64,000 nucleotides of DNA, taken from assembly GCF_003018255.1 (NCBI RefSeq), contig NZ_CP027440.1; one strand, 5' to 3'. How positions within the stretch are numbered: the stretch's first letter is position 1; each line of letters starts with the position of its first letter. Under the pieces are notes generated by a model. The model was given only the letters and a program-made list of their open reading frames with translations. It did no database searches and was not told the origin of the DNA. This stretch comes from Escherichia coli (GTDB lineage Bacteria > Pseudomonadota > Gammaproteobacteria > Enterobacterales > Enterobacteriaceae). Positions 1 through 45,911 of this stretch are shown piece by piece. Made by a program: the position numbers and the translations under genes.

Positions 1-1065
1 GAGGATCACAATACTGCGGCCTTCCGGCGTTTCGTCGGCCAGCGAAGCCAGTTGTGCTGCGTCGGCCAGCGTTTTTTCCTCTACGCCCTGCGCAGGGATA
101 AACTCTGATGCCTGACGGTTACCGAGGGTGATGGTGCCAGTTTTATCCAGCAGCAGGACGTCCACGTCGCCCGCCGCTTCAACTGCACGCCCGCTGGTGG
201 CAATCACATTCGCGCCCAACATCCGGCTCATCCCGGCGACGCCGATCGCTGACAACAGGCCGCCAATAGTGGTTGGGATCAGACAGACCAACAGCGCCAC
301 CAGTACCGTTACGCTGACTGCATTACCACCCCATGCGGAAAACGGCCACAGCGTGGCGGTTGCCAGTAAAAAGACGATAGTCAGGGCAATCAGCAGGATG
401 GTCAGGGCAATCTCGTTCGGCGTTTTGCGTCGCTGCGCGCCTTCCACCATCGCGATCATCCGATCCAGAAATGTCTCGCCGGGGTTAACGCTGCACTCAA
501 TCACCAGCCAGTCAGAAAGAATACGCGTGCCGCCAGTGACGGAGGCAAAATCGCCGCCGGATTCACGGATCACCGGAGCCGATTCCCCGGTGATGGCGCT
601 TTCATCGACCGATGCGCCGCCTTCAATGACTTCACCATCGCAGGGGATAATATCGCCAGCTTCTACCAGTACGATATCGCCTTTACGCAGTTGATCTGCG
701 GGAACTTTGTCCGCCGCAGCGCCATATTTCGGCTCACGCAGCTTGCGGGCAAAGGCAGTTTTTTTCACCCCTTTCAGACTATTGGCTTGCGCTTTACTGC
801 GGCCTTCTGCCAGCGCCTCGGCGAAATTAGCGAACAGTACGGTGACCCACAGCCAGCCGCTAATTGCCGCGCTAAACAGCGCATTGCCAGGCATCGCGCC
901 GCTTGCCATTGCAATGCTAATAAAGGTGGTTAACAGACTGCCGATCCAGACGATAAACATCACTGGATTACGCCATTGCGCCTGCGGGTTTAATTTTTTC
1001 ACCGCTTCTTTCAGCGCCTGAACGACAAGTGTTGGTTCGAATAGCGCCAGTTGTTTACGACTCAT
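1..1065 (-). CDS. kdpB: Potassium-transporting P-type ATPase subunit B, N-terminal part; gene continues past window start
   Basis: Minus-strand frame starting [15 protein letters not shown] at 1065 (ATG complement 1063-1065), open to position 1; sits downstream of kdpA in kdpFABC order. Confidence 0.85.
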
Positions 1066-1087
1066 ATTCAGTGCTCACTCAATATCA

Positions 1088-2761
1088 TCAGGAGAGATAT
1101 TCCGCCACCGGACCAAGCGCCAGGGCAGGGATAAAGGTCAGTGCGCCAACCAGCAACACGGTGCCGATTAACAGGCCAACAAACAGCGGGCCGTGCGTTG
1201 GCAGCGTGCCGGAGCTGGCGGGCTGGCTCTTTTTACTCACCAGCGAACCGGCAATTGCCATCACCGGGATAATTACCCCGAAGCGACCGACAAACATGCA
1301 GAACGCCAGCAAACAGTTCCAGAATGGAGAGTTGGCGCTTAATCCGGCAAAGGCGCTGCCGTTGTTGTTAGCGGCGGATGACACGGCGTACAGCACTTCG
1401 CTAAAACCATGCGGGCCAGGGTTGAGCATGGCGCTACGTCCGGCGTCGGTCATCATTGCCAGCGCCGCGCCCATCAGCGCCAGCGTTGGGGTGACCAGAA
1501 TCGCCAGCGCGGTCAGTTTCATCTCGCGTACGTCGATTTTTTTACCCAGATATTCCGGTGTACGACCAATCATCAGCCCAGCAATAAACACCGCCAGCAG
1601 GACAAACAGCATCATGCCGTAAAGACCAGAACCGACACCGCCGAACACCACTTCACCAATTTGCATCAGCCACATCGGCACCATGCCACCAAGAGCGGTA
1701 AACGAATCATGCATCGCAATCACCGCGCCACAGGAAGCCGCCGTAGTCACGACCGCAAACAGGCTACTGACCAGCACGCCGAAACGACTCTCTTTACCTT
1801 CCATATTGATGCTGCTGTCCGCGCCCAGTGCCAGCAGATGCGGATTACCCTGAACTTCTGCCCACATCACCACGCCTGTGCAGATGATAAAAATCACTGA
1901 CATCGCCCACAGCAACATGCGCCCCTGACGGCGATCGCCCGCCACTTCGCCAAAGGCAAAGCACAGCGCTGTTGGGATCAAGAAGATCGCCAGCATCTGC
2001 ACGAAGTTGGTCAGTGCGGTTGGGTTTTCAAACGGATGCGACGAGTTGGCATTAAAGAAGCCACCGCCGTTAGTGCCGAGCATCTTGATCGCTTCCTGAG
2101 AAGCTACAGGCCCCATGGGTAACAGCTGTTGCGCTCCTTCAACGGTATTCACCGCCTGATAGGGCAGAAAGTTTTGCAGCGCACCTTGTTGAATAAAAAA
2201 CAATGCGATCAACAACGCCACAGGGACTAGCACCCATAACGTGATGCGTAGCAGATCGACCCAGGCATTCCCGAGTGTGCTCATGCTCTGGCGGGTAAAT
2301 GCACGTATGAGGGCAAAAATCACCGCAATCCCGCTGGCGGCAGAAAGAAAGTTTTGCACCGTTAAGCCCGCCATCTGGCTGAAATAGCTCAACGTGGTTT
2401 CACCGCTGTAAGATTGCCAGTTGGTATTTGTGACAAAGCTGACGGCGGTATTCAGCGCCAGATCCCACGACAGTCCTGGCAACTGCTGTGGATTAAGCGG
2501 CAGATAGTGCTGACCGAGCAACATAAAAAACAGCACCGCCAGCCCCAGTATATTCAGGCCAAGAATGGCTGAGAGATACTGCTTCCAGTTCATCTCGCGG
2601 TCAGAGACGCCAAGCGCGCGAAAAAGTACGCGCTCAACGCCCGTCGTACCGGGAAGAGGAATGTCATTAATCAGCCGCGCCAGCCCGCTGCCTAAAGGAC
2701 GCGCCAGCACCATTAACACCAGTAAAAACGTGGCAATCAGTAAGAACCCTTGCGCAGCCAT
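1088..2761 (-). CDS. kdpA: Potassium-transporting ATPase subunit A (557 aa)
   Basis: ORF 1088..2905 contains the KdpA sequence from [24 protein letters not shown]; start ATG at 2759-2761 overlaps the kdpF stop (ATGA). Confidence 0.95.
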
Positions 2762-2850
2762 CAGAACGCCTCCGCATTGATCAGGGCATAAACCAGATAA
2801 CCCAGTAATAAAAACACCAGCAACACGCCGGCTATCACGCCTGCACTCAC
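2761..2850 (-). CDS. kdpF: KdpF, 29-aa membrane peptide of the Kdp complex, GTG start
   Basis: Translation [30 protein letters not shown] read from the C-terminus of ORF 2761..2964; stop overlaps kdpA start. Confidence 0.85.
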
Positions 2851-2923
2851 AGTGCACCTCCAGTGGCCTAAAAGTGATACCGGAAGAGTAGAATTCTGGC
2901 TGCAAAGATTTCGCAAAAATCTG

Positions 2924-2955
2924 CGGGCGGGGTGTAAAAAAAGTATAAAAATGGC
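2924..2955 (-). promoter_or_regulatory. Probable KdpE response-regulator box upstream of kdpF
   Basis: Minus-strand sequence CATTTTTATACTTTTTTTACACCCCGCCCG with TTTATA/TTTACA half-sites, about 75-105 bp upstream of the kdpF start; matches the KdpE operator as I remember it. Confidence 0.55.
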
Positions 2956-3162
2956 AAAAGCCATGATTTAACTAATGTTTAGTATTAATTTAACCTTTGT
3001 GTAACTTAATTACGGTATGAATGTAAATAAACCATCAATAAGCAAAAATAAGTGGTCGGATGAGTAGTAAAATTACACAAAAGGCGGTACTATTTTCATC
3101 AGATAAACAAATTCATTTTTCCGGTGCTATTCACCGGGTAGATACAAAAGGGGGAGAAAAGT

Positions 3163-3369
3163 ATGGAACTCTACAGAGAATATCCTGCATGGCTTATCTT
3201 TTTACGCCGTACTTATGCGGTTGCAGCGGGCGTTCTGGCGCTGCCTTTCATGCTTTTCTGGAAAGACCGCGCCCGCTTTTACAGCTACCTGCACCGCGTC
3301 TGGTCGAAAACCAGCGATAAACCGGTGTGGATGGATCAGGCCGAAAAGGCGACTGGTGATTTTTACTGA
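3163..3369 (+). CDS. ybfA: Small conserved membrane protein YbfA (68 aa)
   Basis: [71 protein letters not shown]; GGAG-type RBS upstream. Confidence 0.85.
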
Positions 3370-3393
3370 TTGCTGAGTTCTGAATACATTGAA

Positions 3394-3427
3394 AACCGCC
3401 AGCGGAAACGCTGGCGGTTTTTTTTGT
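3394..3427 (+). terminator. Rho-independent terminator after ybfA
   Basis: Hairpin CCGCCAGCG-GAAA-CGCTGGCGG followed by a run of 8 T. Confidence 0.8.
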
Positions 3428-3613
3428 ATCAGGAAGATGTTCAGAGGAATATTTAGACACCGTTATACCAATCGAAACATATATTCATGAAATATATATA
3501 AATATTTTCCTAATTGTTCTTATCTGACAGATATCTCACTTAAGGCTTTCTTATAAATCTGTAGGGTTTCGCCTGTCAGCAGACAAATAACCCGATAAAA
3601 CAAGGATGAGCAG

Positions 3614-6600
3614 ATGAGCGGAAAACCGGCGGCGCGTCAGGGCGACATGACGCAGTATGGCGGTAGCATTGTTCAGGATTCAGCCGGGGTACGTATTGGT
3701 GCCCCCACCGGCGTGGCCTGTTCGGTGTGCCCCGGCGGGGTGACGTCCGGCCATCCGGTCAATCCGCTGCTCGGTGCGAAGGTCCTTCCCGGCGAAACCG
3801 ACCTTGCCCTGCCCGGCCCGCTGCCGTTCATCCTCTCCCGCACCTACAGCAGTTACCGGACAAAAACGCCCGCGCCGGTGGGGAGCCTCGGCCCCGGCTG
3901 GAAAATGCCTGCGGATATCCGCTTACAGCTGCGCGATAACACACTGATACTCAGTGATAACGGCGGCAGAAGCCTGTATTTTGAGCACCTGTTTCCCGGT
4001 GAGGACGGTTACAGCCGCAGCGAGTCACTCTGGCTGGTGCGCGGCGGCGTGGCGAAACTGGATGAAGGTCACCGGCTGGCCGCACTCTGGCAGGCGCTGC
4101 CGGAAGAGCTTCGCCTGAGTCCGCATCGTTATCTGGCGAAGAACAGTCCGCAGGGGCCGTGGTGGGTATTCGGCTGGTGTGAGCGGGTGCCGGAGGCGGA
4201 TGAGGTGCTGCCTGCGCCGCTGCCGCCGTACCGGATACTGACCGGGCTGGTGGACCGCTTCGGGCGCACACAGACGTTTCACCGTGAGGCTGGCGGCGAA
4301 TTCAGCGGCGAAATCACCGGCGTGACCGACGGCGCAGGCCGTCACTTCCGGCTGGTACTGACCACGCAGGCGCTGCGGGCAGAAGAGGCCCGGCAGAAGG
4401 CCACTTCCGGCGGGACGGAACCGTCCGCTTTTCCTGATACCCAGCCGGACTACACGGAATATGGCCGGGACAACGGTATCCGTCTGTCTGCCGTGTGGCT
4501 GACGCACGACCCGGAATACCCGGAGAATTTACCTGCCGCGCCGCTGGTACGCTATGGCTGGACGCCGCGCGGCGAACTGGCGGCGGTGTATGACCGCAGC
4601 AATACACAGGTGCGCAGCTTTACTTACGATGATAAATACCGGGGCCGGATGGTGGCGCACCGTCACACGGGCCGGCCGGAAATCCGTTACCGTTACGACA
4701 GTGACGGGCGGGTGACAGAACAGCTAAACCCGGCAGGCTTAAGCTACACGTATCAGTATGAGAAAGACCACATCACCATCACCGACAGCCTGGACCGCCG
4801 TGAAGTGCTGCACACGCAGGGCGAAGGCGGGCTGAAGCGGGTGGTGAAAAAGGAACACGCGGACGGCAGCGTCACGCAGAGTCAGTTTGACGCGGTGGGC
4901 AGGCTTAAGGCACAGACGGATGCCGCAGGCCGGACGACTGAGTACAGCCCGGATGTGGTGACCGGACTCATCACGCGCATCACCACGCCGGATGGCAGGG
5001 CATCGGCGTTTTACTATAACCACCACAGCCAGTTAACGTCAGCCACCGGGACTGACGGGCTGGAGTTGCGCAGGGAATATGATGAATCCGGCCGTCTGAT
5101 TCAGGAAACTGCCCCTGACGGCGATATCACCCGCTACCGTTATGATAATCTACACAGTGAATTACCCTGCGCAACGGAAGATGCCACCGGCAGCCGGAAA
5201 ACCATGACATGGAGCCGTTACGGTCAGTTGCTGACCGTCACTGACTGTTCCGGTTATGTAACCCGTTATGACCATGACCGTTTTGGTCAGATGACGGCGG
5301 CGCACCGCGAGGAAGGGCTGAGTCAGTATCGCGCATACGACAGCCGTGGACAGTTAATTGCGGTGAAAGACATGCAGGGCCATGAAACGCGGTATGAATA
5401 CAACGCCGCCGGTGACCTGACCGCCGTCATTGCCCCGGACGGCAGCAGAAACGGGACACAGTACGATACGTGGGGAAAGGCCATCCGTACCACGCAGGGT
5501 GGTCTGACGCGCAGTATGGAATACGATGCTGCCGGACGGGTCATCCGCCTGACCAGTGAAAACGGCAGCCACACCACCTTCCGTTACGATGTACTCGACC
5601 GGCTGATACAGGAAACCGGCTTTGACGGCCGCACACAGCGTTATCATCACGACCTGACCGGTAAACTTATCCGCAGCGAGGATGAGGGGCTGGTCACCCA
5701 CTGGCACTATGACGAAGCAGACCGCATCACGCACCGCACCGTGAAGGGTGAAACCGCAGAACAGTGGCGGTACGACGAACGCGGCTGGCTGACACAAATC
5801 AGCCATCTCAGCGAAGGCCACCGGGTGACGGTGCATTACGGGTATGATGAGAAAGGCCGCCTGACCGGTGAGCGCCAGACGGTACATCACCCGCAGACGG
5901 AAGCACTGCTCTGGCAGCATGAGACCAGACATGCGTACAACGCGCAGGGGCTGGCGAACCGCTGTATACCGGACAGCCTGCCCGCCGTGGAATGGCTGAC
6001 TTACGGCAGCGGCTGGCTGGCAGGCATGAAACTCGGCGACACACCGCTGGTGGATTTCACCCGTGACCGCCTGCACCGGGAAACGCTGCGCAGCTTCGGC
6101 CGTTATGAACTCACCACCGCTTATACCTCTGCCGGGCAGTTACAGAGCCAGCACCTGAACAGCCTGCAGTATGACCGCGATTACACCTGGAACGACAACG
6201 GCGAACTCATCCGCATCAGCAGCCCGCGACAGACCCGGAGTTACAGCTACAGCGACTCCGGCAGGCTGACCGGCGTCCACACCACCACCTCAAATCTGGA
6301 TATCCGCATCCCGTATGCCACGGACCCGGCAGGTAACCGCCTGCCCGACCCGGAGCTGCACCCGGACAGCACCCTCAGCATGTGGCCGGATAACCGTATC
6401 GCCCGTGACGCGCACTATCTTTACCAGTATGACCGTCACGGCAGGCTGACAGAGAAAACCGACCTCATCCCGGAAGGGGTTATCCGCACGGATGATGAGC
6501 GGACTCACCGGTACCATTACGACAGCCGGCACCGGCTGGTGCACTACACGCGGACACAATATGCAGAGCCGCTGGTCGAAAGTCGCTATCTTTACGACCC

Positions 6601-7300
6601 GCTGGGGCGCAGGGTGGCAAAACGGGTATGGCGGCGTGAACGGGACCTGACGGGCTGGATGTCGCTGTCACGGAAACCGGAAGTGACCTGGTACGGCTGG
6701 GACGGCGACCGGCTGACCACAATACAGAACGACAGAACCCGCATCCAGACGGTTTATCAGCCGGGGAGCTTCACGCCACTCATCAGGGTCGAAACTGCCA
6801 CCGGTGAGCTGGCGAAAACGCAGCGCCGCAGCCTGGCGGATGCGCTTCAGCAGTCCGGCGGTGAAGACGGTGGCAGTGTGGTGTTCCCGCCGGTGCTGGT
6901 GCAGATGCTCGACCGGCTGGAAAGTGAAATCCTGGCTGACCGGGTGAGTGAGGAAAGCCGCCGCTGGCTGGCATCGTGCGGCCTGACGGTGGAGCAGATA
7001 CAAAACCAGATGGACCCGGTGTACACGCCGGCGCGAAAAATCCACCTGTACCACTGCGACCATCGCGGCCTGCCGCTGGCGCTTGTCAGCACGGAAGGGG
7101 CAACAGAATGGTGCGCAGAATACGATGAATGGGGCAACCTGCTGAATGAAGAGAACCCGCACCAGCTGCAGCAGCTCATCCGCCTGCCGGGTCAGCAGTA
7201 TGATGAGGAGTCCGGCCTGTATTACAACCGCCACCGCTATTATGACCCGCTGCAGGGGCCAGGGAAAGATCACGTAACGCTGCTTTTTTGTACTAAATAA
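3614..7300 (+). CDS. rhsC: Rhs core protein of the RhsA/B/C subfamily (1228 aa), C-terminally truncated just before the DPxGL boundary; no toxin tip
   Basis: GC-rich ORF with YD-repeat core; N-terminus [21 protein letters not shown]; ends ...[13 protein letters not shown] then 13 unrelated codons ([13 protein letters not shown]) and stop. Confidence 0.9.
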
Positions 7301-8255
7301 TTCGCATTTTATGTTTAAAAATTGAGATATTCCTCATTACCTAAAGCTGTTTTTCATTGCTTATACATGATCAAATACTCCTTACATAATTAAGGAGAAC
7401 AAAATGGAACTTAAAAAATTGATGGAGCATATTTCTATTATCCCAGATTACAGACAAGCCTGGAAAGTGGAACATAAATTGTCTGATATTCTACTGTTGA
7501 CTATTTGTGACGTTATTTCTGGTGCAGAAGGTTGGGAAGATATAGAGGATTTTGGGGAAACACATCTCGATTTTTTAAAACAATATGGTGATTTTGAAAA
7601 TGGTATTCCTGTTCACGATACCATTGCCAGAGTTGTATCCTGTATCAGTCCTGCAAAATTTCACGAGTGCTTTATTAACTGGATGCGTGACTGCCATTCT
7701 TCAGATGATAAAGACGTCATTGCAATTGATGGAAAAACGCTCCGGCACTCTTATGACAAGAGTCGCCGCAAGGGAGCGATTCATGTCATTAGTGCGTTCT
7801 CAACAATGCACAGTCTGGTCATCGGACAGATCAAGACGGATGAGAAATCCAATGAGATCACAGCTATCCCGGAACTTCTTAACATGCTGAATATTAAAGG
7901 AAAAATAATCACAACTGATGCGATGGGTTGCCAGAAAGATATTGCAGAGAAGATACAAAAACAGGGCGGTGATTATTTATTCGCTGTAAAAGGAAACCAG
8001 GGGCGGCTAAATAAAGCCTTCGAGGAAAAATTTCCGCTGAAAGAATTAAATAATCCAGAGCATGGCAGTTACGCAATGAGTGAAAAGAGTCACGGCAGAG
8101 AAGAAATCCGTCTTCATATTGTTTGCGATGTCCCTGATGAACTTATTGATTTCACGTTTGAATGGAAAGGGCAGCCATGGACAGAAAATATCTGGCGTCA
8201 GTCCTTGCGGGGAGCGTGCTTTCGTAATTTTGCCCTGCTACAACAGGATTAACTT
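7258..8255 (+). mobile_element. H-repeat (ISAs1-family) element remnant fused to the 3-prime end of the Rhs core
   Basis: Rhs homology stops after the DPLQG codons at about 7257; AT-rich leader then an H-repeat transposase ORF with an internal deletion; no terminal inverted repeat seen at the right end. Confidence 0.7.
7404..8252 (+). pseudogene. H-repeat-associated (ISAs1-family) transposase, internally deleted and frameshifted (282 codons; intact homologs are about 378 aa as I recall)
   Basis: N-terminus [35 protein letters not shown] typical of YhhI/YdcC-like H-repeat proteins; after ...FEWKG the frame changes and the expected C-terminus ([16 protein letters not shown]) is readable in another frame at 8177-8227. 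Confidence 0.75.
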
Positions 8256-8312
8256 CACAAACATCATTTGCCAACGTCTACACTTACTCCTGTTAATATC
8301 TCAGGAGCAGTA

Positions 8313-8822
8313 ATGAATCAGCAACGATTTGATGAAAGCACTCTAATCCGTATCTTCGCGCTTTATGAGTTACATCGACTGAAAGAACATGGCTTAACGC
8401 GCGGGGCACTCAACGATTATCACAGCCGCTATAAACTCGTCTTTCTGGCCCATTCCCAGCCCGAGTACCGCAAACTTGGCCCGTTCGTGGCTGATATTCA
8501 CCAGTGGCAAAATCTGGATGACTATTACAACCAGTACCGCCAACGCGTAGTTGTTTTGCTTTCTCACCCCGCCAACCGACGTGACCACACCAATGTTTTG
8601 ATGCACGTTCAGGGTTATTTTCGCCCTCATATTGATTCCACAGAACGCCAGCAGCTGGCGGCGCTTATCGACAGTTATCGCGGTGGCGAGCAACCGCTTC
8701 TTGCGCCGCTGATGCGTATCAAACACTATATGGCGCTTTATCCTGACGCCTGGCTTTCAGGGCAGCGTTATTTCGAACTTTGGCCGCGTGTGATTAACTT
8801 GCGCCATTCAGGAGTTTTATGA
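8313..8822 (+). CDS. ybgA: DUF1722 protein YbgA (169 aa)
   Basis: ORF MNQQRFDESTLIRIFALYELHRLKEHGLTRG...; stop overlaps phr start. Confidence 0.85.
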   Translation: MNQQRFDESTLIRIFALYELHRLKEHGLTRGALNDYHSRYKLVFLAHSQPEYRKLGPFVADIHQWQNLDDYYNQYRQRVVVLLSHPANRRDHTNVLMHVQGYFRPHIDSTERQQLAALIDSYRGGEQPLLAPLMRIKHYMALYPDAWLSGQRYFELWPRVINLRHSGVL

Positions 8823-10237
8823 CTACCCATCTGGTCTGGTTTCGCCAGGATTTACGTCAGCATGATAATCTCGCGCTGGCTGCCGCCTGCCGCAATTCGT
8901 CTGCAAGCGTGCTGGCGTTGTATATCGCTACACCACGCCAGTGGGCGGCGCATAATATGTCGCCGCGTCAGGCTGAATTTATCAATGCACAACTGAACGG
9001 GCTACAAATCGCGCTGGCGGAAAAAGGCATTCCTTTGCTGTTTCATGAAGTGGATGACTTTGCCGCCAGCGTCGAAATAGTTAAACAGGTGTGCGCGGAA
9101 AATCGTGTTACCCATCTGTTTTATAACTATCAGTATGAGGTGAATGAGCGGGCGCGGGATGTGCAGGCTGAGAGGGCGCTGCGTAACGTGGTGTGTGAAG
9201 GATTTGACGACGGCGTGATCCTGCCGCCGGGGGCGGTGATGACTGGCAATCATGAGATGTACAAAGTCTTTACGCCATTTAAAAACGCCTGGCTTAAACG
9301 GCTGCGAGAAGGGATGCCGGAGTGCGTCGCTGCGCCAAAAGTACGTAGTAGCGGATCGATAGATCCCGCGCCATCCATTACGCTGAATTATCCTCGTCAG
9401 CCTTTCGATACTGCGCATTTCCCGGTGGAAGAGAAAGCGGCGATTGCGCAATTACGCCAGTTTTGCCAGAACGGTGCCGGAGAGTATGAGCAACAGCGAG
9501 ATTTCCCTGCGGTAGAAGGCACCAGCCGTTTGTCCGCCAGCCTGGCAACGGGCGGGTTATCGCCTCGCCAGTGTTTGCATCGCCTGTTGGCGGAACAGCC
9601 GCAGGCGCTGGACGGTGGGGCCGGTAGTATCTGGCTTAATGAGCTGATCTGGCGCGAGTTTTACCGTCATCTGATAACGTATTACCCCTCGCTGTGTAAA
9701 CATCGTCCGTTTATTGTCTGGACCGACCGCGTGCAGTGGCAGAGCAATTCCGCGCATTTAAAGGCCTGGCAGGAAGGCAAAACGGGATACCCGATTGTTG
9801 ATGCTGCCATGCGTCAGCTTAACAGCACCGGCTGGATGCATAACCGGCTACGGATGATTACAGCCAGTTTTTTGGTGAAAGATTTATTGATCGACTGGCG
9901 CGAAGGTGAGCGATATTTCATGTCGCAGCTGATTGATGGTGATTTGGCAGCCAATAACGGTGGCTGGCAGTGGGCCGCTTCAACCGGAACCGATGCAGCG
10001 CCGTATTTTCGTATTTTTAACCCGACAACCCAGGGCGAGAAATTTGACCGTGAGGGCGAGTTTATCCGCCAGTGGCTACCGGAACTGCGCGATGTGCCAG
10101 GGAAAGTGGTGCATGAGCCGTGGAAGTGGGCGCAGAAAGCAGGTGTGACGCTGGATTATCCGCAACCGATAGTTGATCACAAAGAGGCAAGGCTGCGAAC
10201 GCTGGCAGCGTACGAAGAAGCGAGGAAAGGAGCCTGA
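8819..10237 (+). CDS. phr: Deoxyribodipyrimidine photolyase (472 aa)
   Basis: MTTHLVWFRQDLR... with FAD-binding C-terminal region (GWMHNRLRMITASFLVKDL, WQWAASTGTDAAPYFRIFNP). Confidence 0.95.
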   Translation: MTTHLVWFRQDLRQHDNLALAAACRNSSASVLALYIATPRQWAAHNMSPRQAEFINAQLNGLQIALAEKGIPLLFHEVDDFAASVEIVKQVCAENRVTHLFYNYQYEVNERARDVQAERALRNVVCEGFDDGVILPPGAVMTGNHEMYKVFTPFKNAWLKRLREGMPECVAAPKVRSSGSIDPAPSITLNYPRQPFDTAHFPVEEKAAIAQLRQFCQNGAGEYEQQRDFPAVEGTSRLSASLATGGLSPRQCLHRLLAEQPQALDGGAGSIWLNELIWREFYRHLITYYPSLCKHRPFIVWTDRVQWQSNSAHLKAWQEGKTGYPIVDAAMRQLNSTGWMHNRLRMITASFLVKDLLIDWREGERYFMSQLIDGDLAANNGGWQWAASTGTDAAPYFRIFNPTTQGEKFDREGEFIRQWLPELRDVPGKVVHEPWKWAQKAGVTLDYPQPIVDHKEARLRTLAAYEEARKGA

Positions 10238-10279
10238 TAAAACGCAGCGAGCGTCTTATCAGGCATCGGTGCTGGCCTG

Positions 10280-11944
<1,665 letters not shown>

Positions 11945-12031
11945 TTAATATGTCAAAAGATTGGCTATCGACGAACAGGCGAGGTAACGCTATGTTAACG
12001 GTGTAGCTATCAGAATACGGAAGGCGCGAAG

Positions 12032-39787: not shown

Positions 39788-41185
39788 TTACCCCTTAAAC
39801 GTTAACCACGGTCGAAATCTGACCGCTGGCTGAATTAATCCGGCTTCTTGTTGGGCTTCGATAACCGGACCAATATCTTTATAAGCCGCTGGCGCTTCTT
39901 CAAAACGTCGTTCTTCGCGCAATGTGACGCATTGCCACGGCAGCGTTGACTCTTCAGTCGCGCGTGAGCGCATGGCCTGCCGACGCTGGCTGCGTCCTGC
40001 TCCGTGACTGCATGACCACAGCCACTCCGGGTTGCCGCAACCTACCGCAAGCCACGAATAATCGCCCATTGAACCGGGGATTAACGCCAGATTGCCCACT
40101 CGTGCCGGTGTTGCGCCTTTGCGATGAATATTCATTTCATGCTCGCGAAGGATGATGTTATGTGGCACATCCACCACCAGATGCGAATTGTCCTGATGAA
40201 AGAGATTGGCAAGACATACGCGCACCATTTCGGCAATTGTGACGCGATTTAACCATGCGTAACGCGCCGCCATTCCTATCGCTTGTAGATATTCCTCCGC
40301 CAGTCCGCCTGCCAGACCATATAACCCGCTTTGTGGATGTTTATGTCCGGTGGGCCATTCAGCACGGGCGCGATCCATCCAGCGTCTTCCGACGTAAAAG
40401 CCAACATCTCGCGATCCACTGTGGATCATCACCACAATATCGCCTGTTTTCAGCCCTTGTTGCCAGGCTACATGGCGATCAACCACGCTATCAACGACCT
40501 GAAGTTCAATAAAATGATTACCTGAACCCGGCGTACCCAGACAAGGATCGCGGAGTAATGCGCGGTCCGTTGCCTGCAGGGCGGGTGGGGCATAACGCGA
40601 ATGACTGTTATGCTCGTTAAGCCCAATGCAGCGGTCAATCTCTTGTACCATTCGGGGGATATTCGTGCGTATCCAGAGACCTTCTGATGGCAAGGTCGAC
40701 ACGCAATCTGCCGGTCCGCCATCAAAAAGCGCGGTGAACGCCTGTGCGGATAACGGAACATCGCGCTCATTTTGCAGTAGCACTTGCGTTAACCGCTGAG
40801 CGATGACGTCTTTATGCGCTTCGGCTTGCTCAAGTGTTAATCCGGTCGTCAGCAGCCGCATGCCACAAGAAATATCGGTGCCGATGGCGGCGGGAATGAC
40901 TAAATCCGGCGTTGAGGCCACCACCGCGCCAACGGGGACGCCATTGCCGGGATGAAAATCTGGCGTCGCGCACGTCTGGCGCACATAACCTGGGTGGTCT
41001 GGTAGCTTCACTTCTGCAAAATCAAGCAGTTGTGTTACTGCTTTTTCTTCCAGCGGCAGTTCGTCCGGCAGCAGTACGCGGGCACTGGCACCTGATGGAC
41101 GAGATAATGAAACAATATTGTTGGCGCGGGAAAGTTGGATCCCTTTGCGCAGAAAGGCTTTATCAAGCCTTGAAAGATGATGCAT
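39788..41185 (-). CDS. RtcB-family RNA 3-prime-phosphate ligase paralog (465 aa), orphan
   Basis: Conserved RtcB motifs: TPDFHPGNG, IPAAIGTDISCGMRLL, GTPGSGNHFIELQ, MIHSGSRDVG, IPGSMG, CSHGAGR, AYKDIGPVIEAQ; N-terminus about 30 aa longer than canonical RtcB; start codon uncertain. Confidence 0.85.
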   Translation of the reverse strand: MHHLSRLDKAFLRKGIQLSRANNIVSLSRPSGASARVLLPDELPLEEKAVTQLLDFAEVKLPDHPGYVRQTCATPDFHPGNGVPVGAVVASTPDLVIPAAIGTDISCGMRLLTTGLTLEQAEAHKDVIAQRLTQVLLQNERDVPLSAQAFTALFDGGPADCVSTLPSEGLWIRTNIPRMVQEIDRCIGLNEHNSHSRYAPPALQATDRALLRDPCLGTPGSGNHFIELQVVDSVVDRHVAWQQGLKTGDIVVMIHSGSRDVGFYVGRRWMDRARAEWPTGHKHPQSGLYGLAGGLAEEYLQAIGMAARYAWLNRVTIAEMVRVCLANLFHQDNSHLVVDVPHNIILREHEMNIHRKGATPARVGNLALIPGSMGDYSWLAVGCGNPEWLWSCSHGAGRSQRRQAMRSRATEESTLPWQCVTLREERRFEEAPAAYKDIGPVIEAQQEAGLIQPAVRFRPWLTFKG

Positions 41186-41490
41186 AACGCTGTCCTGAAA
41201 TATAGACGTTAAACAACCCCCTGTATGGCGAGGGTAATTTTGTCTTTCCGGTCAGCAGCCAGCAAAAGGGAAAGAAAACGCGCGTAGTGTATGTGGCGAT
41301 AGCAAGTGTTACAAGTGGTAAATCTGGCTTATTGTTAAAGAGGAATTATCTTTTGTGAAGTCTTTTAAGGCCATGACTCATTCAATTTAACCGGACATAG
41401 ATAATATATAACATAGGGTATCTAAATTTATCATTGTATACTTGTCATAATTCAAGTTGCATGTGCTGCATCGATGTTCGCTCACCCAGG

Positions 41491-42060
41491 TCACTTACTT
41501 ATGTAAGCTTCTGGAAATTCATTATTTGTTCCCTTCCTGCAACTTGACTTATTTAGAGTATATTCATGTATACACATCGAGATTTCAGCCAGCAGACGCG
41601 CATCTGGCGTGCCGTGGCGGATCTGTAGCGGTTTTTGCAGAGTTTCGGTGAGGCGACGGCAAGCTGCAACGCCGTGGTTAACGACCGGTAAACCGTTCAG
41701 TTTAGAGGTTCCGGCTTCGATGGATTTTTTAATCCCTACAGCCGCTTCTTCGTACCGATTCAGACGGGTATATGCATCGATGGTGCTCGGCAGCAGATCG
41801 CACTCTTCTTGTAGTGTTTTCAGTAGTTCGATGTGTTCGTCCATCAGCGCCACACCTGCGCGCGGTTGGCTAAGGGTTTTACCTTCCTTGTCTGCTTTCA
41901 ACAGCGCAAGAGAGAAGCGTTTATGCTCAGGAATGGTTTGTTGGTATTTAACGCCATCTTCAAAGTTTTCAACATCCTTGCCGGTTTCCCAGGTTTTCAG
42001 TACCTGTTGCCGCTCGGTCATGAATTCGTCATGGGTTAATTTCTTATTTCGAAGTTCCAT
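41491..42060 (-). pseudogene. glmE: Glutamate mutase E (epsilon) subunit, truncated: 189 codons versus about 480 in intact homologs
   Basis: [33 protein letters not shown]...[20 protein letters not shown]...[15 protein letters not shown]...[13 protein letters not shown] resembles the GlmE N-terminus; similarity ends near codon 165, then 24 unrelated codons and stop. Confidence 0.75.
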
Positions 42061-42078
42061 TGATTGCAGCCTTAATTG

Positions 42079-43467
42079 TTATAGGGTTAAGCATTGAATA
42101 CTGGTGCGCGCGGCGGCCAGCGGATCGACTCTGGCGACGTTTGCCAGCAGTGGTAATAGCCCCCGGGAATCGCGGTAATATTCAAATTCGGTCGGTAAGA
42201 GAATGCGTTTACCGTCGTCGTTTAACTCGCGGTATTTCAACCAGTGATGCATATCGAACTGACTGGCACGCGAGAGCCATCCGCCGGATCCGACGACTTT
42301 ACGCACGGTTGTCAGGTCACGTCCCATCTGTAAATCGACATTGCCGACGCAGGTGCAGACCTCTTTTTTGGTGCCCGCATGTCTTTCGGTGGCATAACCC
42401 ACACACAGTCCGGCCAGGACGGTATCGAAATATTTTTCTTCTGCATTCGCGGGTAAGTAGTCGGGATGAGCGACTAGATGACGGAGGTAATGATAAAAAG
42501 CGTCCAGCTGTGCGGGTTGCTGAGCAAAATTCACATTGACTAACTCTTTCGCACTTTCACCAACCACCATTGCCGAGACGCGCATTCCCAGATCTCCTTC
42601 CACCGTCCGTTTTACGAAGGGTTCCGGTACGCCATGTAAAACAGTGTCGGGCGAGAGCGTGTTGGCACTGGCGGAATAGACATCGGTGGTTGCGCCACCC
42701 ATGTCGATCAGCATGAACTCTTTCCAGCTGTGATCGACATTACTGATTGCCTTAACCAGTTCAAAGACTGTCCACGGTGTCGGCATTGGTTCTTCGCCTG
42801 TTTTATCAACAACGACATCCAGCCCTTTCCCTTTAACGATGCGTTTAAGGAATATGTCGCAGATAGCCTGGCGTGCAGCTAAAGGGTTCGGATGGTCAAG
42901 ATCGGGCAGAACGTTGTCGACGATGGTCAGGTCTTTATGCCCGAGGATCTCCTGCACCTCGTCCTGAATATCCCGGTTTCCGGCATAAATAATGGCGCAG
43001 TCGAGTTTGGATTCTGCCAACACACGGGCGTTATTCAGTCCGTAGCTTTCTTCTCCGCCATCGGTGCCGCCGGTGAACAAGAGAATATCGGGCTGCGTTT
43101 CTTCCAGTGCCTGGATATCACGGCGGTTCAGCTTGTAGGCGTAAGATTGCGCAATTTTAGCACCCGCAGAGTGAGCGGTTACTTTCGCGGTTTCCAGGGT
43201 GATAGAAGGCACCAATCCCATTGCGGCAACCGCCAGCCCACCTTTGGCAGAGGAGGAATACTTCAATGCAACCTCACCACTGTTTAACAGGGGGAGGGCA
43301 TCATCTACGTTTAACACCTGGTCCAGGCTGGAGAAAAACCCCTTCGCCAGATGATGGGTGGTGGTTGGGGTCAGTACGTGGTTAACCAACGTTAACGCGT
43401 CCCCCTCCCGGGCGAAGAGGGCTGCTTTGGTCCACGTCGATCCAATATCGACAGAGACGATTTGCAT
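42079..43467 (-). CDS. glmL: Glutamate mutase accessory protein GlmL/MutL-like (462 aa)
   Basis: [18 protein letters not shown]... actin/Hsp70-like ATPase fold; translationally coupled to glmS (TGATG overlap); placed between glmS and glmE as in clostridial operons. Confidence 0.75.
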   Translation of the reverse strand: MQIVSVDIGSTWTKAALFAREGDALTLVNHVLTPTTTHHLAKGFFSSLDQVLNVDDALPLLNSGEVALKYSSSAKGGLAVAAMGLVPSITLETAKVTAHSAGAKIAQSYAYKLNRRDIQALEETQPDILLFTGGTDGGEESYGLNNARVLAESKLDCAIIYAGNRDIQDEVQEILGHKDLTIVDNVLPDLDHPNPLAARQAICDIFLKRIVKGKGLDVVVDKTGEEPMPTPWTVFELVKAISNVDHSWKEFMLIDMGGATTDVYSASANTLSPDTVLHGVPEPFVKRTVEGDLGMRVSAMVVGESAKELVNVNFAQQPAQLDAFYHYLRHLVAHPDYLPANAEEKYFDTVLAGLCVGYATERHAGTKKEVCTCVGNVDLQMGRDLTTVRKVVGSGGWLSRASQFDMHHWLKYRELNDDGKRILLPTEFEYYRDSRGLLPLLANVARVDPLAAARTSIQCLTL

Positions 43468-43916
43468 CAGATTGCCTCTTCAAGAATACGAGTATCAACG
43501 TCATGACGTTGGTTGATATCGTGGGCCATCAGCTGACAAACATCTTCTAAGTCATGACTTGGGGCAAAGACGCGATCAAATCCCATCTCTTTGAATTTGG
43601 TTTCCACGTCAGCGAAGTCATGTTTTCCGACCACCAGGTTACCGCCCACATAGAGCAGGATGTCCCCCAGTCCACGCTCGATGCAGCGTTCGCGCATGCC
43701 CAGACAGTCGATATCGCCATGCCCATAGATAGAGGAGACGACAATCGCGTCAGCACCAGTTTCAATGGCAGCATCAATATATTCGTCCTGGCTGACCATT
43801 ACGCCCAGATTAATAACTCTGAAGTCATGGTTGCTAAAAACGCGGTCCAGAACTTTATTGCCTACTGCATGGCAGTCCGCGCCAATAACGCCAATCACAA
43901 GTGTTGCTTTCTTCAT
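43467..43916 (-). CDS. glmS: Glutamate mutase S (sigma) subunit, B12-binding (149 aa)
   Basis: [24 protein letters not shown]... with the DxHxxG cobalamin-binding motif; AGGA RBS 7 nt upstream of this ATG (the listed ORF extends 21 codons further upstream). Confidence 0.8.
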
Positions 43917-44463
43917 GGGTAATCCTTTGTAAGACAGAGAGTAAAATAAGTTACACACGTCGTATTTATGGCCGCTCATAACGGCACAGGTTTAATATCA
44001 CAGGAGTGTCTTTATCTGACCGTAATGTTGCAATTGATCTATTTTCAAAATGTCTTTCGGGAAATGATTGTTTAAAGTGTGTTTTCAAATTCTCATGTTA
44101 ATTCAGTGTGTTATGTCAACTAATGTCATGAATGTTAAATTTTTAAAATTAACTTGATTTGATGTATTGAGATAATTGTGATCAACTTCTAATTTGCATT
44201 TTAGTGATATGGGGTTAGCCATGAGTAAATGCATTTCATAAAAGTTAAGTCGAATTTCACTGCAATTCATCTCTGCTTAATGTAAAAATAATGTTGAAAA
44301 TAACAAATAATTAATGATTCATGCGAATTATGACCTTTGTTAGCTCTTTTGATTTTTCGTAAAAAAGAAAAGTACATGAAGGTGCTACCAGTACGAGAAA
44401 CGTTAATCAAAAGTTTTATTACGTCTGGCAATAACGCAGGCCATTTTTCGCGACAGGAGGGAT

Positions 44464-44886
44464 TTAATCAGTATAATCCTCATACAATAGGTCAGGATTT
44501 ACAGAACCGTTAACGGGGTTTTGGTGTTGAAATTTAGAAATGGTGGAGTCAATCAATGAAGACAGTATCGAAAAAATGACTGTGTCAGAATTAATTTCAA
44601 TTAATCCTTCTCGTTGTTGACCAAAAAAGATATTTATCTTGATTTCATTTGTACTACGGAAATCAATATGTAGTAATTTTTGATCGCTGAGATTTTCTGT
44701 TTCATAAATGTTTTTGGCGATAGTCGGATGTATTGATGCCAGACATCTGCTCAGATAAGCCAGATCCTTTAGGGAACACCCCGCTGAGTAGAGGATGTCA
44801 GAGAATTTTTGTGTGTCAACTGTTGGCTCTGAAGCGTATGTTGCATTGACTGGAAGGGTGTTGAAGGAGATTTGAGATGGGATCAT
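44464..44886 (-). CDS. Hypothetical protein (140 aa), small and acidic, low GC
   Basis: Intact ORF MIPSQISFNTLPVNATYASEPTVDTQKF...; no recognisable motif; sits in an AT-rich segment of the island. Confidence 0.5.
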   Translation of the reverse strand: MIPSQISFNTLPVNATYASEPTVDTQKFSDILYSAGCSLKDLAYLSRCLASIHPTIAKNIYETENLSDQKLLHIDFRSTNEIKINIFFGQQREGLIEINSDTVIFSILSSLIDSTISKFQHQNPVNGSVNPDLLYEDYTD

Positions 44887-44966
44887 TATTTAAATCTTTC
44901 CGTGAGTAATAAAAATTAATCCCCGGGCATTGTTTAGTAATATTTGCCACAGGGGATATATAAAAA

Positions 44967-45911
44967 TTAAAGTATTTGATTGGCATCGGTTAACTGATCA
45001 ATAACCAGTGCCAGATTGGTAAACATTTTGAAAAAGCGATACTGGCTCGGAATATCTCTTTCAAAGACGAAACATTCAATGTCATTGTTTGAAAAATAAA
45101 GGACTAGTGATGCTGATTCGTCAGGAAAAATATGGAAATATATCTGGTTACCAGAAGGAGGATAGTCCAGAAGAAGGGTATCTTTGCCCGTCACATACCT
45201 GTTGTGGTCGTGGATGCTGCGCTCACACTTCATCAGAGGTGTCATGATACTCATGTATTCATCTGATGTTAATATATTAAAATCACCATCCATTTTAAAG
45301 AAACGATAAAGTAACAGTACATCCTCTTGCGTAACCGGTTCGTTTGTTTTTAGAGGGAAATAAGTGGGAACCAGAAGATGAGGTTCTAATCTATTTTGTT
45401 GAGCGCTATAACTAAATTTGAACATAAATTCCGGATCGCTCATCAATTGAGCGACATAATTATGCCTGGCTTCAAAAATTTTAACTTTTATCAGGTTAAA
45501 TAAGTCTGTTTCGTCATCCTGTATTAAAAGACATTGGCCATAGCAGCCAGGCTTTTTTTCATTATAAGCAGAAACGGTTATTCTGTCAGGAGTGTCAACG
45601 TTATATCCAAAAGCCAGATAGTGACCTTCCTCATCGAGATTTGTTTCCAGGTTATTTAAATTCATCACATGAAGTGTTTGCAATGCTGATTCAATGAGCT
45701 GTTGACTCTCTGAGGTAAATGTTTCGCGCTGCGTTGTATAAAGTGTATCGATTCCAACGACTATCCGATGTGGGTCAAGGATGGCGGCAATCATCTTTAT
45801 TACCTGCACAGTCATGGGTGATGTCATTGATTCTTTATCTGTTTTTAGAGGATCATTAGATGGCCAACCTGAGAAGCGATTGACAGCAGAACTGATAATA
45901 TCAGGACTCAT
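44967..45911 (-). CDS. Hypothetical protein (314 aa), low GC
   Basis: Intact ORF MSPDIISSAVNRFSGWPSNDPLKTDKESM...; GAGG RBS 8 nt upstream of ATG; no signal peptide or TM helix evident; no family recognised. Confidence 0.6.
   Translation of the reverse strand: MSPDIISSAVNRFSGWPSNDPLKTDKESMTSPMTVQVIKMIAAILDPHRIVVGIDTLYTTQRETFTSESQQLIESALQTLHVMNLNNLETNLDEEGHYLAFGYNVDTPDRITVSAYNEKKPGCYGQCLLIQDDETDLFNLIKVKIFEARHNYVAQLMSDPEFMFKFSYSAQQNRLEPHLLVPTYFPLKTNEPVTQEDVLLLYRFFKMDGDFNILTSDEYMSIMTPLMKCERSIHDHNRYVTGKDTLLLDYPPSGNQIYFHIFPDESASLVLYFSNNDIECFVFERDIPSQYRFFKMFTNLALVIDQLTDANQIL

Follow-up and report, generated by a model that had tools for sequence, protein, structure and literature searches.

A deletion of 2.85 kb between 191-bp direct repeats very probably deprived the kdp-linked rhs locus of the window, by which the whole stretch of 64,000 nucleotides analysed here is meant, of its toxin tip and of three immunity genes that an ancestor with the full locus had carried. 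What is left is a truncated Rhs ORF of 1228 aa (3614..7300, + strand), identified from the ORF list and from profile searches, followed by a defective H-repeat. The locus is bordered by conserved flanks, with ybfA (3163..3369, + strand) on the left, kdpFA lying further left on the - strand, and ybgA (8313..8822, + strand) followed by phrB on the right. This is a strain-specific instance of a kind of rhs rearrangement that is already known, an ordinary event which does not establish any new kind of system.

The ORF holds the large conserved core of clade I (RhsA/B/C type), with its N-terminal DUF6531/PAAR-like region and its YD-repeat shell, together with the first ~42 of the 76 positions of the Rhs-associated core (plug/aspartyl-protease). 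It matches the NCBIfam model RHS_core (NF041261) at 2531 bits, its residues 1-1215 aligning to profile positions 1-1229 of 1261, and the model Rhs_assc_core (TIGR03696) only at profile positions 1-42 of 76. The final 32 positions of the former and the final 34 of the latter are missing, and a full-length Rhs protein from a sister covers both models completely. A Pfam search run on residues 1-1200 returned DUF6531, at least 13 RHS_repeat matches and RHS. The region 5' of and into the ORF (2000-3677) is identical to that of the sister JNE112863, and the exact 1228-aa protein has no record in a large assembly collection.

The ORF ends 13 codons past YYDPLQG, and ORF and joint comparison place this tail and its TAA stop at 7260..7300 (+ strand), where the residues are encoded by the left end of the H-repeat. 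No variable C-terminal toxin domain is found in the ORF, which has just these 13 residues beyond the core. Two DPLGL motifs placed 17 residues apart make up the C-terminal plug/protease of Rhs proteins, and the catalytic Asp is in the second of them (Jurenas et al. 2021, PMC8636562). Following the motif definition of PMC3150448 and PMC8636562, the clade-I demarcation PxxxxDPxGL (two DPxGL-type motifs about 17 aa apart) is absent from the ORF; PxxxxDPxGL was found nowhere in the 64-kb window and DPxG[LIVM] in none of the six frames of 7200-8400. The Rhs protein of the sisters has DPIGL, 17 aa and DSMGL. Moreover, there is no immunity gene directly 3' of the Rhs ORF, where the next ORFs are that of the H-repeat and then ybgA, nor is there a second copy of the deleted tip/immunity segment within the 64-kb window. 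The K-12 cassettes ybfB, ybfO, ybfC, ybfQ and ybfL are also absent from the window locus. A preliminary description of this DNA, made from the letters alone, had proposed a core-only ORF collinear with the Rhs core for about 1215 aa, stopping 13 codons after YYDPLQG and having no DPxGL motif, followed by an internally deleted H-repeat ORF and ybgA, and all of this was borne out.

The downstream element is a 978-bp remnant (7260..8237, + strand) of an H-repeat (H-rpt / ISEc1-like, ISAs1 family), against 1291 bp for H-rptB of K-12. It has the terminal inverted repeats that serve as a criterion for ISAs1 elements, the left one being CAGGGAAAGATCACG (7260-7274) and the right one lying at 8223-8237, with 12/15 positions matching. 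These repeats share an exact seed of only 5 nt and were established by direct comparison of the ends; the left end is also supported by the differing left flanks of the element at other loci. Its left neighbour in the window is the core end GGGGC and its right neighbour is ybgA-proximal sequence. An internal deletion of 313 bp at ~8172, which is also present in ybfD of K-12, shifts the frame past ...FEWKG and leaves a defective ISAs1-family transposase ORF of 282 aa (7404..8252, + strand) that matches the ISAs1 transposase profile at positions 1-229 of 314 only. The intact DDE transposase (378 aa in H-rptB/YhhI) is not present in the H-repeat of the window.

Examination of 13 sister isolate genomes of the lineage (five RefSeq complete genomes and eight further assemblies) found the full locus kept in every one. 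In these, ybfA is followed by rhs, by a YbfC-like and then an NTF2-fold immunity gene, by a DUF6258 gene and by an orphan core stub of 191 bp that is fused to the H-repeat, with ybgA next to it. The sister rhs encodes 1399 aa with a C-terminal tip of the K-12 ybfO type, and the product of the YbfC-like immunity gene has 189 aa. Identity to ybfO/ybfC of K-12 is 96.8% for the tip and immunity gene that were lost; the tip has no match to a Pfam family and the YbfC-like protein none to an NCBIfam family. The preliminary description was right that the K-12 rhsC cassettes are absent, but what was lost here is a ybfO-type tip with the YbfC-like, NTF2-fold and DUF6258 genes, and not the K-12 rhsC set. 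The closest sisters differ from the window by 2-3 SNPs in 11.7 kb of flank, and the window is nested in their sub-lineage. A more distant sub-lineage (2014C-3075, SCU-301), whose flank is ~98% identical, still has the full form. The comparison across E. coli genomes suggested in the preliminary description found no case, among 5,426 complete genomes, of a long core that continues without a break into the H-repeat.

Over all 64 kb the window is collinear with the sister JNE23-011, save that it lacks 2,850 bp which in the sister separate the stub from the 3' end of the main core. Window positions 1-7259 align to JNE23-011 at 99.3% and positions 7069-64000 at 99.87%, the latter stretch of 56.9 kb having one gap of 1 nt, and the two alignments overlap by 191 bp. 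This overlap is a repeat (7069..7259, + strand) that is present once in the window and twice in the sisters, where one copy closes the main core on its 3' side and the other constitutes the orphan stub. The two sister copies are direct repeats, identical at 190 of 191 positions, and the missing 2,850 bp are exactly the segment that they flank. In three sisters they differ solely at window position 7085, with one more difference in the main copy of a fourth; the main copy has G at this position, the stub has A and the window has the main-type G. Since the only distinguishing site is main-type in the window, the crossover is placed in the interval 7086-7259, which comprises 174 bp of perfect identity and is delimited by this one informative site. 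Beyond 7259 the sequence is that of the joint between stub and H-repeat. A recombinant should carry main-type markers upstream and orphan-type sequence downstream of the crossover, and the window has this configuration, on a single marker. The joint region 7150-7450 is 100% identical in four complete sister genomes and 99% identical in a fifth, where the annotation shows an RHS fragment, truncated at its N-terminus, adjoining ybfD, and the identical joint, with at least 70 nt on each side, was found as the end of the stub in all sister genomes.

Homologous recombination between the main core and the orphan stub is considered the proximate cause of the loss because the joint is identical to the pre-existing joint of the stub and the missing DNA is bounded by direct repeats. 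The ancestor would have had the full kdp-linked rhs locus of the sisters, in which the stub, at its core/tip boundary, already abutted the defective H-repeat's left end. An intrachromosomal crossover between the 3' end of the main core and the stub, presumably dependent on RecA, would then have removed the 2,850 bp between the repeats, presumably as a circle; replication slippage is a possible alternative. The product is a promoter-proximal, in-frame Rhs core whose frame continues past YYDPLQG into the H-repeat, where 13 foreign codons precede the stop; both DPxGL-type motifs, the toxin and all three immunity genes are missing. With these gone, the element should be unable to deliver a toxin and the locus no longer encodes immunity to the ancestral one. 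The event did not fuse the core to a new orphan toxin, which would have re-armed it; the stub has no tip and so the product is toxin-less. The truncated protein may still be expressed, and the change may have consequences for fitness.

An assembly artefact is improbable. Here the source genome would have the full locus, and the assembler would have crossed the 191-bp repeat once and skipped a loop of 2.66 kb. The 174 bp of perfect identity in the repeat are longer than typical k-mers, and the search with a diagnostic pattern of 228 nt (main-core-specific anchor, 163-nt gap and H-repeat joint), which had no matches in GTDB species-representative genomes, found two metagenome contigs with the same path. 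OLEA01000550 has a nikR-core joined to an H-repeat of full length and part of yafV, and OLFA01000339 a ybfA-core joined to an H-repeat of the yncH-locus type, a vgrG remnant and a divergent rhsE-like rhs. These flanks are mutually inconsistent, as is typical of repeat-induced chimeras, and therefore indicate that assemblers can make this path; a MEGAHIT contig likewise joins yncH to the ybfD H-repeat. As independent confirmation of the deletion the two contigs were rejected, since their flanks would need multiple large rearrangements and they are best read as such chimeras, and no independent isolate sharing the deletion was found. The core of the window is also a mosaic of two paralogue types, which an artefact could explain: a tract of ~1 kb inside it (4072..5072, + strand) carries alleles of the nik-linked rhs paralogue and not those of the kdp-linked copy of the sisters. 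Judged from these alleles, the tract likely arose by gene conversion between paralogous cores. Against an artefact, the window is unbroken through the 3.65-kb multi-copy core and the multi-copy H-repeat, whereas short-read assemblies break there, one of them starting inside the core. This suggests long-read contiguity, and long reads would span the 2.85-kb loop. In addition, apart from the 1-nt gap the sequence is clean against JNE23-011, and both flanks are syntenic, unlike those of the metagenome chimeras.

The opposite direction of change is still less probable. In that case the fusion of core and H-repeat would be ancestral and the sisters would have gained the repeat, the tip, ybfC and the NTF2 and DUF6258 genes when a circle integrated by one crossover in the 3' end of the core. 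This is the exact reverse of the deletion and leaves the same repeat structure, and such integrations have been proposed (Jackson et al. 2009, PMC2935791, step 2 of the model). Nevertheless, the other 13 genomes of the lineage all have the full form with the same G/A repeat difference, including the sub-lineage with ~98% identical flanks, and the closest sub-lineage includes the window. A single recent deletion is therefore more parsimonious than several gains, or than one ancient gain plus a surviving relic.

A deletion made in this strain by the H-repeat transposase, starting at the element's left end and reaching back to the core/tip boundary, is very improbable: the endpoint does fall precisely on the left terminus of the H-repeat (7260), and H-repeats abut truncated Rhs fragments in AR_0067 (orphan tip), HS-02 (ybfO') and the nik locus of JNE23-011 (internal core), but such a deletion would have to recreate the nucleotide joint already present in all sisters, the missing DNA is bounded by the 191-bp direct repeats and the local transposase is truncated and frameshifted. 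The preliminary description had attributed the disarming to an H-repeat-associated deletion. That the element was disarmed with its 3.7-kb core kept is confirmed; that the H-repeat was the proximate cause is not, given the direct repeats and the joint that pre-exists in the sisters. The H-repeat is implicated in an older event alone, the making of the toxin-less stub, and no new H-repeat junction arose in the window. For this older joint an origin through the CAGGG microhomology shared by the core end and the left inverted repeat was considered and rejected, as both CAGGG copies are retained.

Main core by stub recombination in this locus, with its ancestral state documented in 13 sister genomes, offers a natural example of the product predicted by step 1 of the Jackson model and by main by orphan recombination as described by Koskiniemi et al., with breakpoints placed within 174 bp. 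It indicates that, where an insertion sequence has truncated the last orphan, such recombination can leave an Rhs element disarmed instead of re-armed, and that the immunity genes go simultaneously. For annotation, an old orphan truncation made by an IS can be told apart from a recent, homology-driven loss of an active toxin. It is also conceivable, though highly speculative, that the tip-less stub capped by the H-repeat is a built-in "off" cassette which recurrently yields a cargo-less Rhs shell kept for a structural or decoy role. If so, the shell would consist of the PAAR-like N-terminus and the cage with no protease plug or toxin, and it might serve for example in the assembly of the secretion apparatus without the cost of a toxin and would not be a dead gene. 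Compatible with this are the intact 1228-aa frame, the untouched 5' region and other apparent inactivations of the same rhs among the sisters (frameshift annotations in JNE23-011 and SCU-301 and a split ORF in GCA_974490455.1).

Among known systems, the rhsC locus of E. coli K-12 (rhsC-ybfB-ybfO-ybfC-ybfQ-ybfL-ybfD), a comparison with which had been recommended, occupies the same site (kdpFA-ybfA ... ybgA-phrB) and has a clade-I core and a terminal H-repeat remnant adjoining ybgA, with the 313-bp internal deletion as in ybfD. K-12 has in addition a complete RhsC with its tip, the YbfB immunity protein, the orphan ybfO/ybfC module and two further H-repeat fragments, none of which is in the window. 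Like the H-rpt/ISEc1 (ISAs1-family) elements of E. coli Rhs loci, the window H-repeat has terminal inverted repeats of the CAGGG type and a match to the ISAs1 profile, and it is 96.4% identical to K-12 H-rptB over 916 bp. Unlike them it is internally deleted, with a frameshifted and C-terminally incomplete transposase, and shows no sign of movement in the lineage.

In Salmonella Typhimurium LT2, recombination between main and orphan sequences deletes rhs-CT(main) and rhsI(main) (Koskiniemi et al. 2014, PMC3967940). There too the 3' core of a full-length rhs recombines with the core homology of a downstream orphan, and the main tip and its immunity gene are deleted. The homology is 522 bp at 95% in LT2, whereas it is 191 bp at 99.5% in the present case, and no immunity-preserving duplication intermediate is evident for the window. 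Moreover, the LT2 orphan brings a new functional toxin and re-arms the element, whereas the bare, H-repeat-capped stub leaves it toxin-less. Jackson et al. (2009, PMC2935791) proposed that an rhs core recombines with the core sequence of a dissociated tip to give a circle with a core fragment, the tip and the intervening genes. The window resembles the chromosomal product of the first step of this model of C-terminal displacement, with the circle as its prediction; the model explains the gain and displacement of tips, whereas the window represents a net loss.

At its kdp-linked rhs locus the window has lost, by a strain-specific and homology-driven event, the toxin/immunity end of a known Rhs element, and a toxin-less core was left. 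The Rhs core ORF (3614-7300, 1228 aa) follows kdpA/kdpF (minus strand) and ybfA (3163-3369) and ends before a 282-aa H-repeat ORF (7404-8252), to the right of which lie ybgA (8313-8822), phrB and dtpD (minus strand). Residues 1-1215 match the NCBIfam RHS_core equivalog with 2531 bits (cut-off 2000 bits), and DUF6531, many RHS repeats and the RHS motif were recognized in Pfam. The RHS_core profile is covered at positions 1-1229 of 1261 only and the Rhs-associated core domain at 1-42 of 76 only, the C-terminus of the protein being the core end with a 13-residue tail. The preliminary description had reported a core-only ORF that stops before the DPxGL motif, and by profiles and motif scans this observation was correct in every particular: the frames of 7200-8400 are all free of DPxG[LIVM], and PxxxxDPxGL is missing from the entire 64-kb window. 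Photorhabdus Rhs1 carries two DPLGL motifs, 17 residues apart, in its C-terminal plug/aspartyl-protease domain, the second Asp being catalytic (PMC8636562). As the window protein lacks both, its product, if made, would be a cage without C-terminal plug, protease or cargo. Expression seems plausible because window 2000-3677 is identical to the complete genome JNE112863.

Three complete genomes (DETEC-S792, JNE23-011 and JNE112863) match the ybgA-dtpD flank at 100.0% identity, and the last two are also 99.7% identical to a further 24.9 kb of the window. The same three genomes and 2014C-3075 have the segment with the core/H-repeat joint (7150-7450) at 100% identity and SCU-301 has it at 99%; in about 288 other genomes the core end is separated from the H-repeat by roughly 320 bp of additional orphan-tip sequence. 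In each of the five genomes with the joint, this is where a short RHS fragment, truncated at its N-terminus, comes to an end. Upstream of the fragment lies a full locus, with rhs (1399 aa, carrying a frameshift in two of the genomes) followed by the genes for a 189-aa protein, an NTF2-fold immunity protein and a DUF6258 protein. A look-up with the exact YbgA protein gave nine isolate assemblies (one being DETEC-S792 again), all with the same full arrangement and all with window 7069-7259 aligning twice; L027, with 2 SNPs in 11.75 kb, and L019, with 3, come closest. The rhs gene of JNE23-011 contains the insertion TGCCC at the window equivalent of 3804 (about 1800 in that locus), that of SCU-301 is annotated as frameshifted, and that of GCA_974490455.1 (2688-6651 of the locus) is split into ORFs of 929 and 384 aa; these apparent inactivations may be real decay or sequencing errors.

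By blastn, window 3000-7259 corresponds to positions 1-4260 of the DETEC-S792 locus and 7069-12000 to positions 6920-11851 (99.96%), with a 191-bp overlap between the two blocks; the window lacks 2,850 bp that the sister has. Across all 64 kb the window is collinear with JNE23-011 and, apart from 5 nt inserted in the latter and a single 1-nt gap, this loss is the only structural difference between them. The lost DNA comprises the tip RYITQDPIGL-(17 aa)-DSMGL... with a C-terminal domain of ~150 aa for which no Pfam match was found, the 189-aa YbfC-like protein, the NTF2-fold immunity gene and the DUF6258 gene. The K-12 orphan module ybfO/ybfC matches the first 1,162 bp of this lost DNA at 96.8% identity, and no copy of the DNA occurs elsewhere in the window.

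The 191-bp copies, one at the 3' end of the main core and one in an orphan stub, were compared base by base in four sister loci (L003, L005, L006 and L007). In the first three they differ at one site, window 7085, with G in the main core and A in the stub, and the main copy of L007 has one further difference. The window has G at 7085 and then runs on into the H-repeat joint of the stub, so that the crossover falls within 7086-7259, a stretch of 174 identical bases. The full form, with the same G/A difference, is carried by all 13 other genomes of the lineage, among them a sub-lineage whose flank is only about 98% identical, and the window nests among the closest sisters; one recent deletion is the parsimonious reading.

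A long core contiguous with an H-repeat was found in none of 5,426 complete genomes, and no record of the exact 1228-aa product was found. A diagnostic 228-nt pattern, absent from the 12 sister or reference loci compared and from the GTDB representative genomes, matches the window and two metagenome contigs, OLEA01000550.1 (flanks nikE'-nikR ... H-rpt-yafV') and OLFA01000339.1 (ybfA ... H-rpt-vgrG'-divergent rhs). The flanks of these contigs are mutually incompatible and their H-repeat is of the yncH-locus type, and they were rejected as confirmation of the deletion. In another contig (ERZ27255629 k141_14597) yncH, H-rpt and ybgA are joined. The three contigs are probably repeat-induced chimeras joining unrelated loci via the rhs core and/or the H-repeat, and they call for caution with rhs structures from short-read or metagenome assemblies. 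Since assemblers can evidently produce the core to H-repeat path, a loop skipped when the source genome was assembled has to be taken seriously as an alternative to a true deletion. Nevertheless we consider it quite improbable: the window passes unbroken through the 3.65-kb multi-copy core and the H-repeat, where short-read assemblies break (L027 begins inside the core), it is essentially indel-free against its sister, and both flanks are syntenic.

The remaining core is a mosaic. Over 4072-5072 (plus 5388), the window's alleles at no fewer than 26 sites are those that JNE23-011 has in its nik-linked rhs paralogue, not those of the kdp-linked copy, and this tract of ~1 kb, present as a whole in no sister genome examined, is 99.7% identical to the nik-linked paralogue and 97% to the kdp-linked copy. 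Such alleles in a kdp-linked core point to a likely gene conversion between paralogous cores. Moreover, six core substitutions are private to the window (3678, 4140, 4169, 5161, 6426 and 6607), five of them non-synonymous (G22D, in the N-terminal PAAR-like region, T176K, L186F, D516E and R938Q), at a density roughly 8-fold above the flanks. A loosening of constraint could explain them, as could conversion from a third paralogue; six sites are too few to claim relaxed selection. In JNE23-011 the yncH/RhsE-type locus (L015, 5001-14650), which may be a degraded T6SS-linked rhs, has three full-length H-repeats, the C-terminal remnant of a VgrG and a divergent Rhs (1386 aa; about 78% identical to the window core at the nucleotide level). 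Elsewhere, between mngB and cydA, the lineage has an accessory segment (window about 39800-45900, by collinearity with L016 42728-48851), which K-12 is not known to have there; the genes annotated within it in the sister are one of the RtcB family, a truncated methylaspartate mutase E gene, glmL, glmS and two hypothetical ones.

The GC content of 57-67% over 3500-7250 drops to 36-46% from about 7250 to 8250, marking a change of composition at about 7260. At its left end the H-repeat begins at 7260 with CAGGGAAAGATCACG..., and the same start has unrelated DNA on its left at other loci of K-12 and other strains. At the joint (7259-7264) the core end ...CTGCAGGGGC meets the H-repeat start CAGGGAAAG, with CAGGG twice, 5 nt apart; the core/tip boundary resembles the IS end, which may have had a bearing on the site where the stub was cut. 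Window 7257-8172 is 96.4% identical to the left 916 bp of K-12 H-rptB (1291 bp) and 8162-8237 aligns to its right end, giving a remnant of 978 bp with an internal deletion of 313 bp and terminal inverted repeats agreeing at 12 of 15 positions. Owing to the internal deletion the ORF changes frame after FEWKG, and it spans only positions 1-229 of 314 in the ISAs1 transposase model. As K-12 ybfD aligns through the same 313-bp deletion, the H-repeat next to ybgA is, on this alignment, old, shared and not recently acting.

The preliminary description was thus right about a disarmed core without toxin, but its suggestion of an H-repeat-associated loss gives way to homology between the 191-bp repeats, the H-repeat seeming to have played a part only in the prior formation of the stub, which ends exactly at the core/tip boundary. 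H-repeats also abut an orphan tip in AR_0067-type genomes, ybfO' in HS-02 and internal core at the nik-linked locus of JNE23-011. In this last locus (L012) a 470-bp internal core fragment (10880-11349, window ~6308-6777) breaks off at 11349, where a full-length H-repeat begins with its left end. This second, different joint in JNE23-011 suggests that H-repeats recurrently cap rhs arrays.

A deletion between long near-identical direct repeats, without new junction sequence, bears the signature of homology-dependent recombination, for which RecA-mediated unequal or intramolecular exchange is the likely route. Slippage is less likely at the 2.66-kb spacing, as is generally established (for example Lovett et al. 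2002, cited in PMC3967940). The locus is a tidy case of an already known process. The deletion matches step 1 of the circular-intermediate model that Jackson et al. 2009 (PMC2935791) proposed for rhs loci, and also the event in Salmonella LT2 in which recombination of main and orphan copies deletes rhs-CT(main) and rhsI(main) (PMC3967940). However, unlike in these processes, the orphan partner here was a bare core stub, and the recombinant was therefore disarmed, not re-armed.
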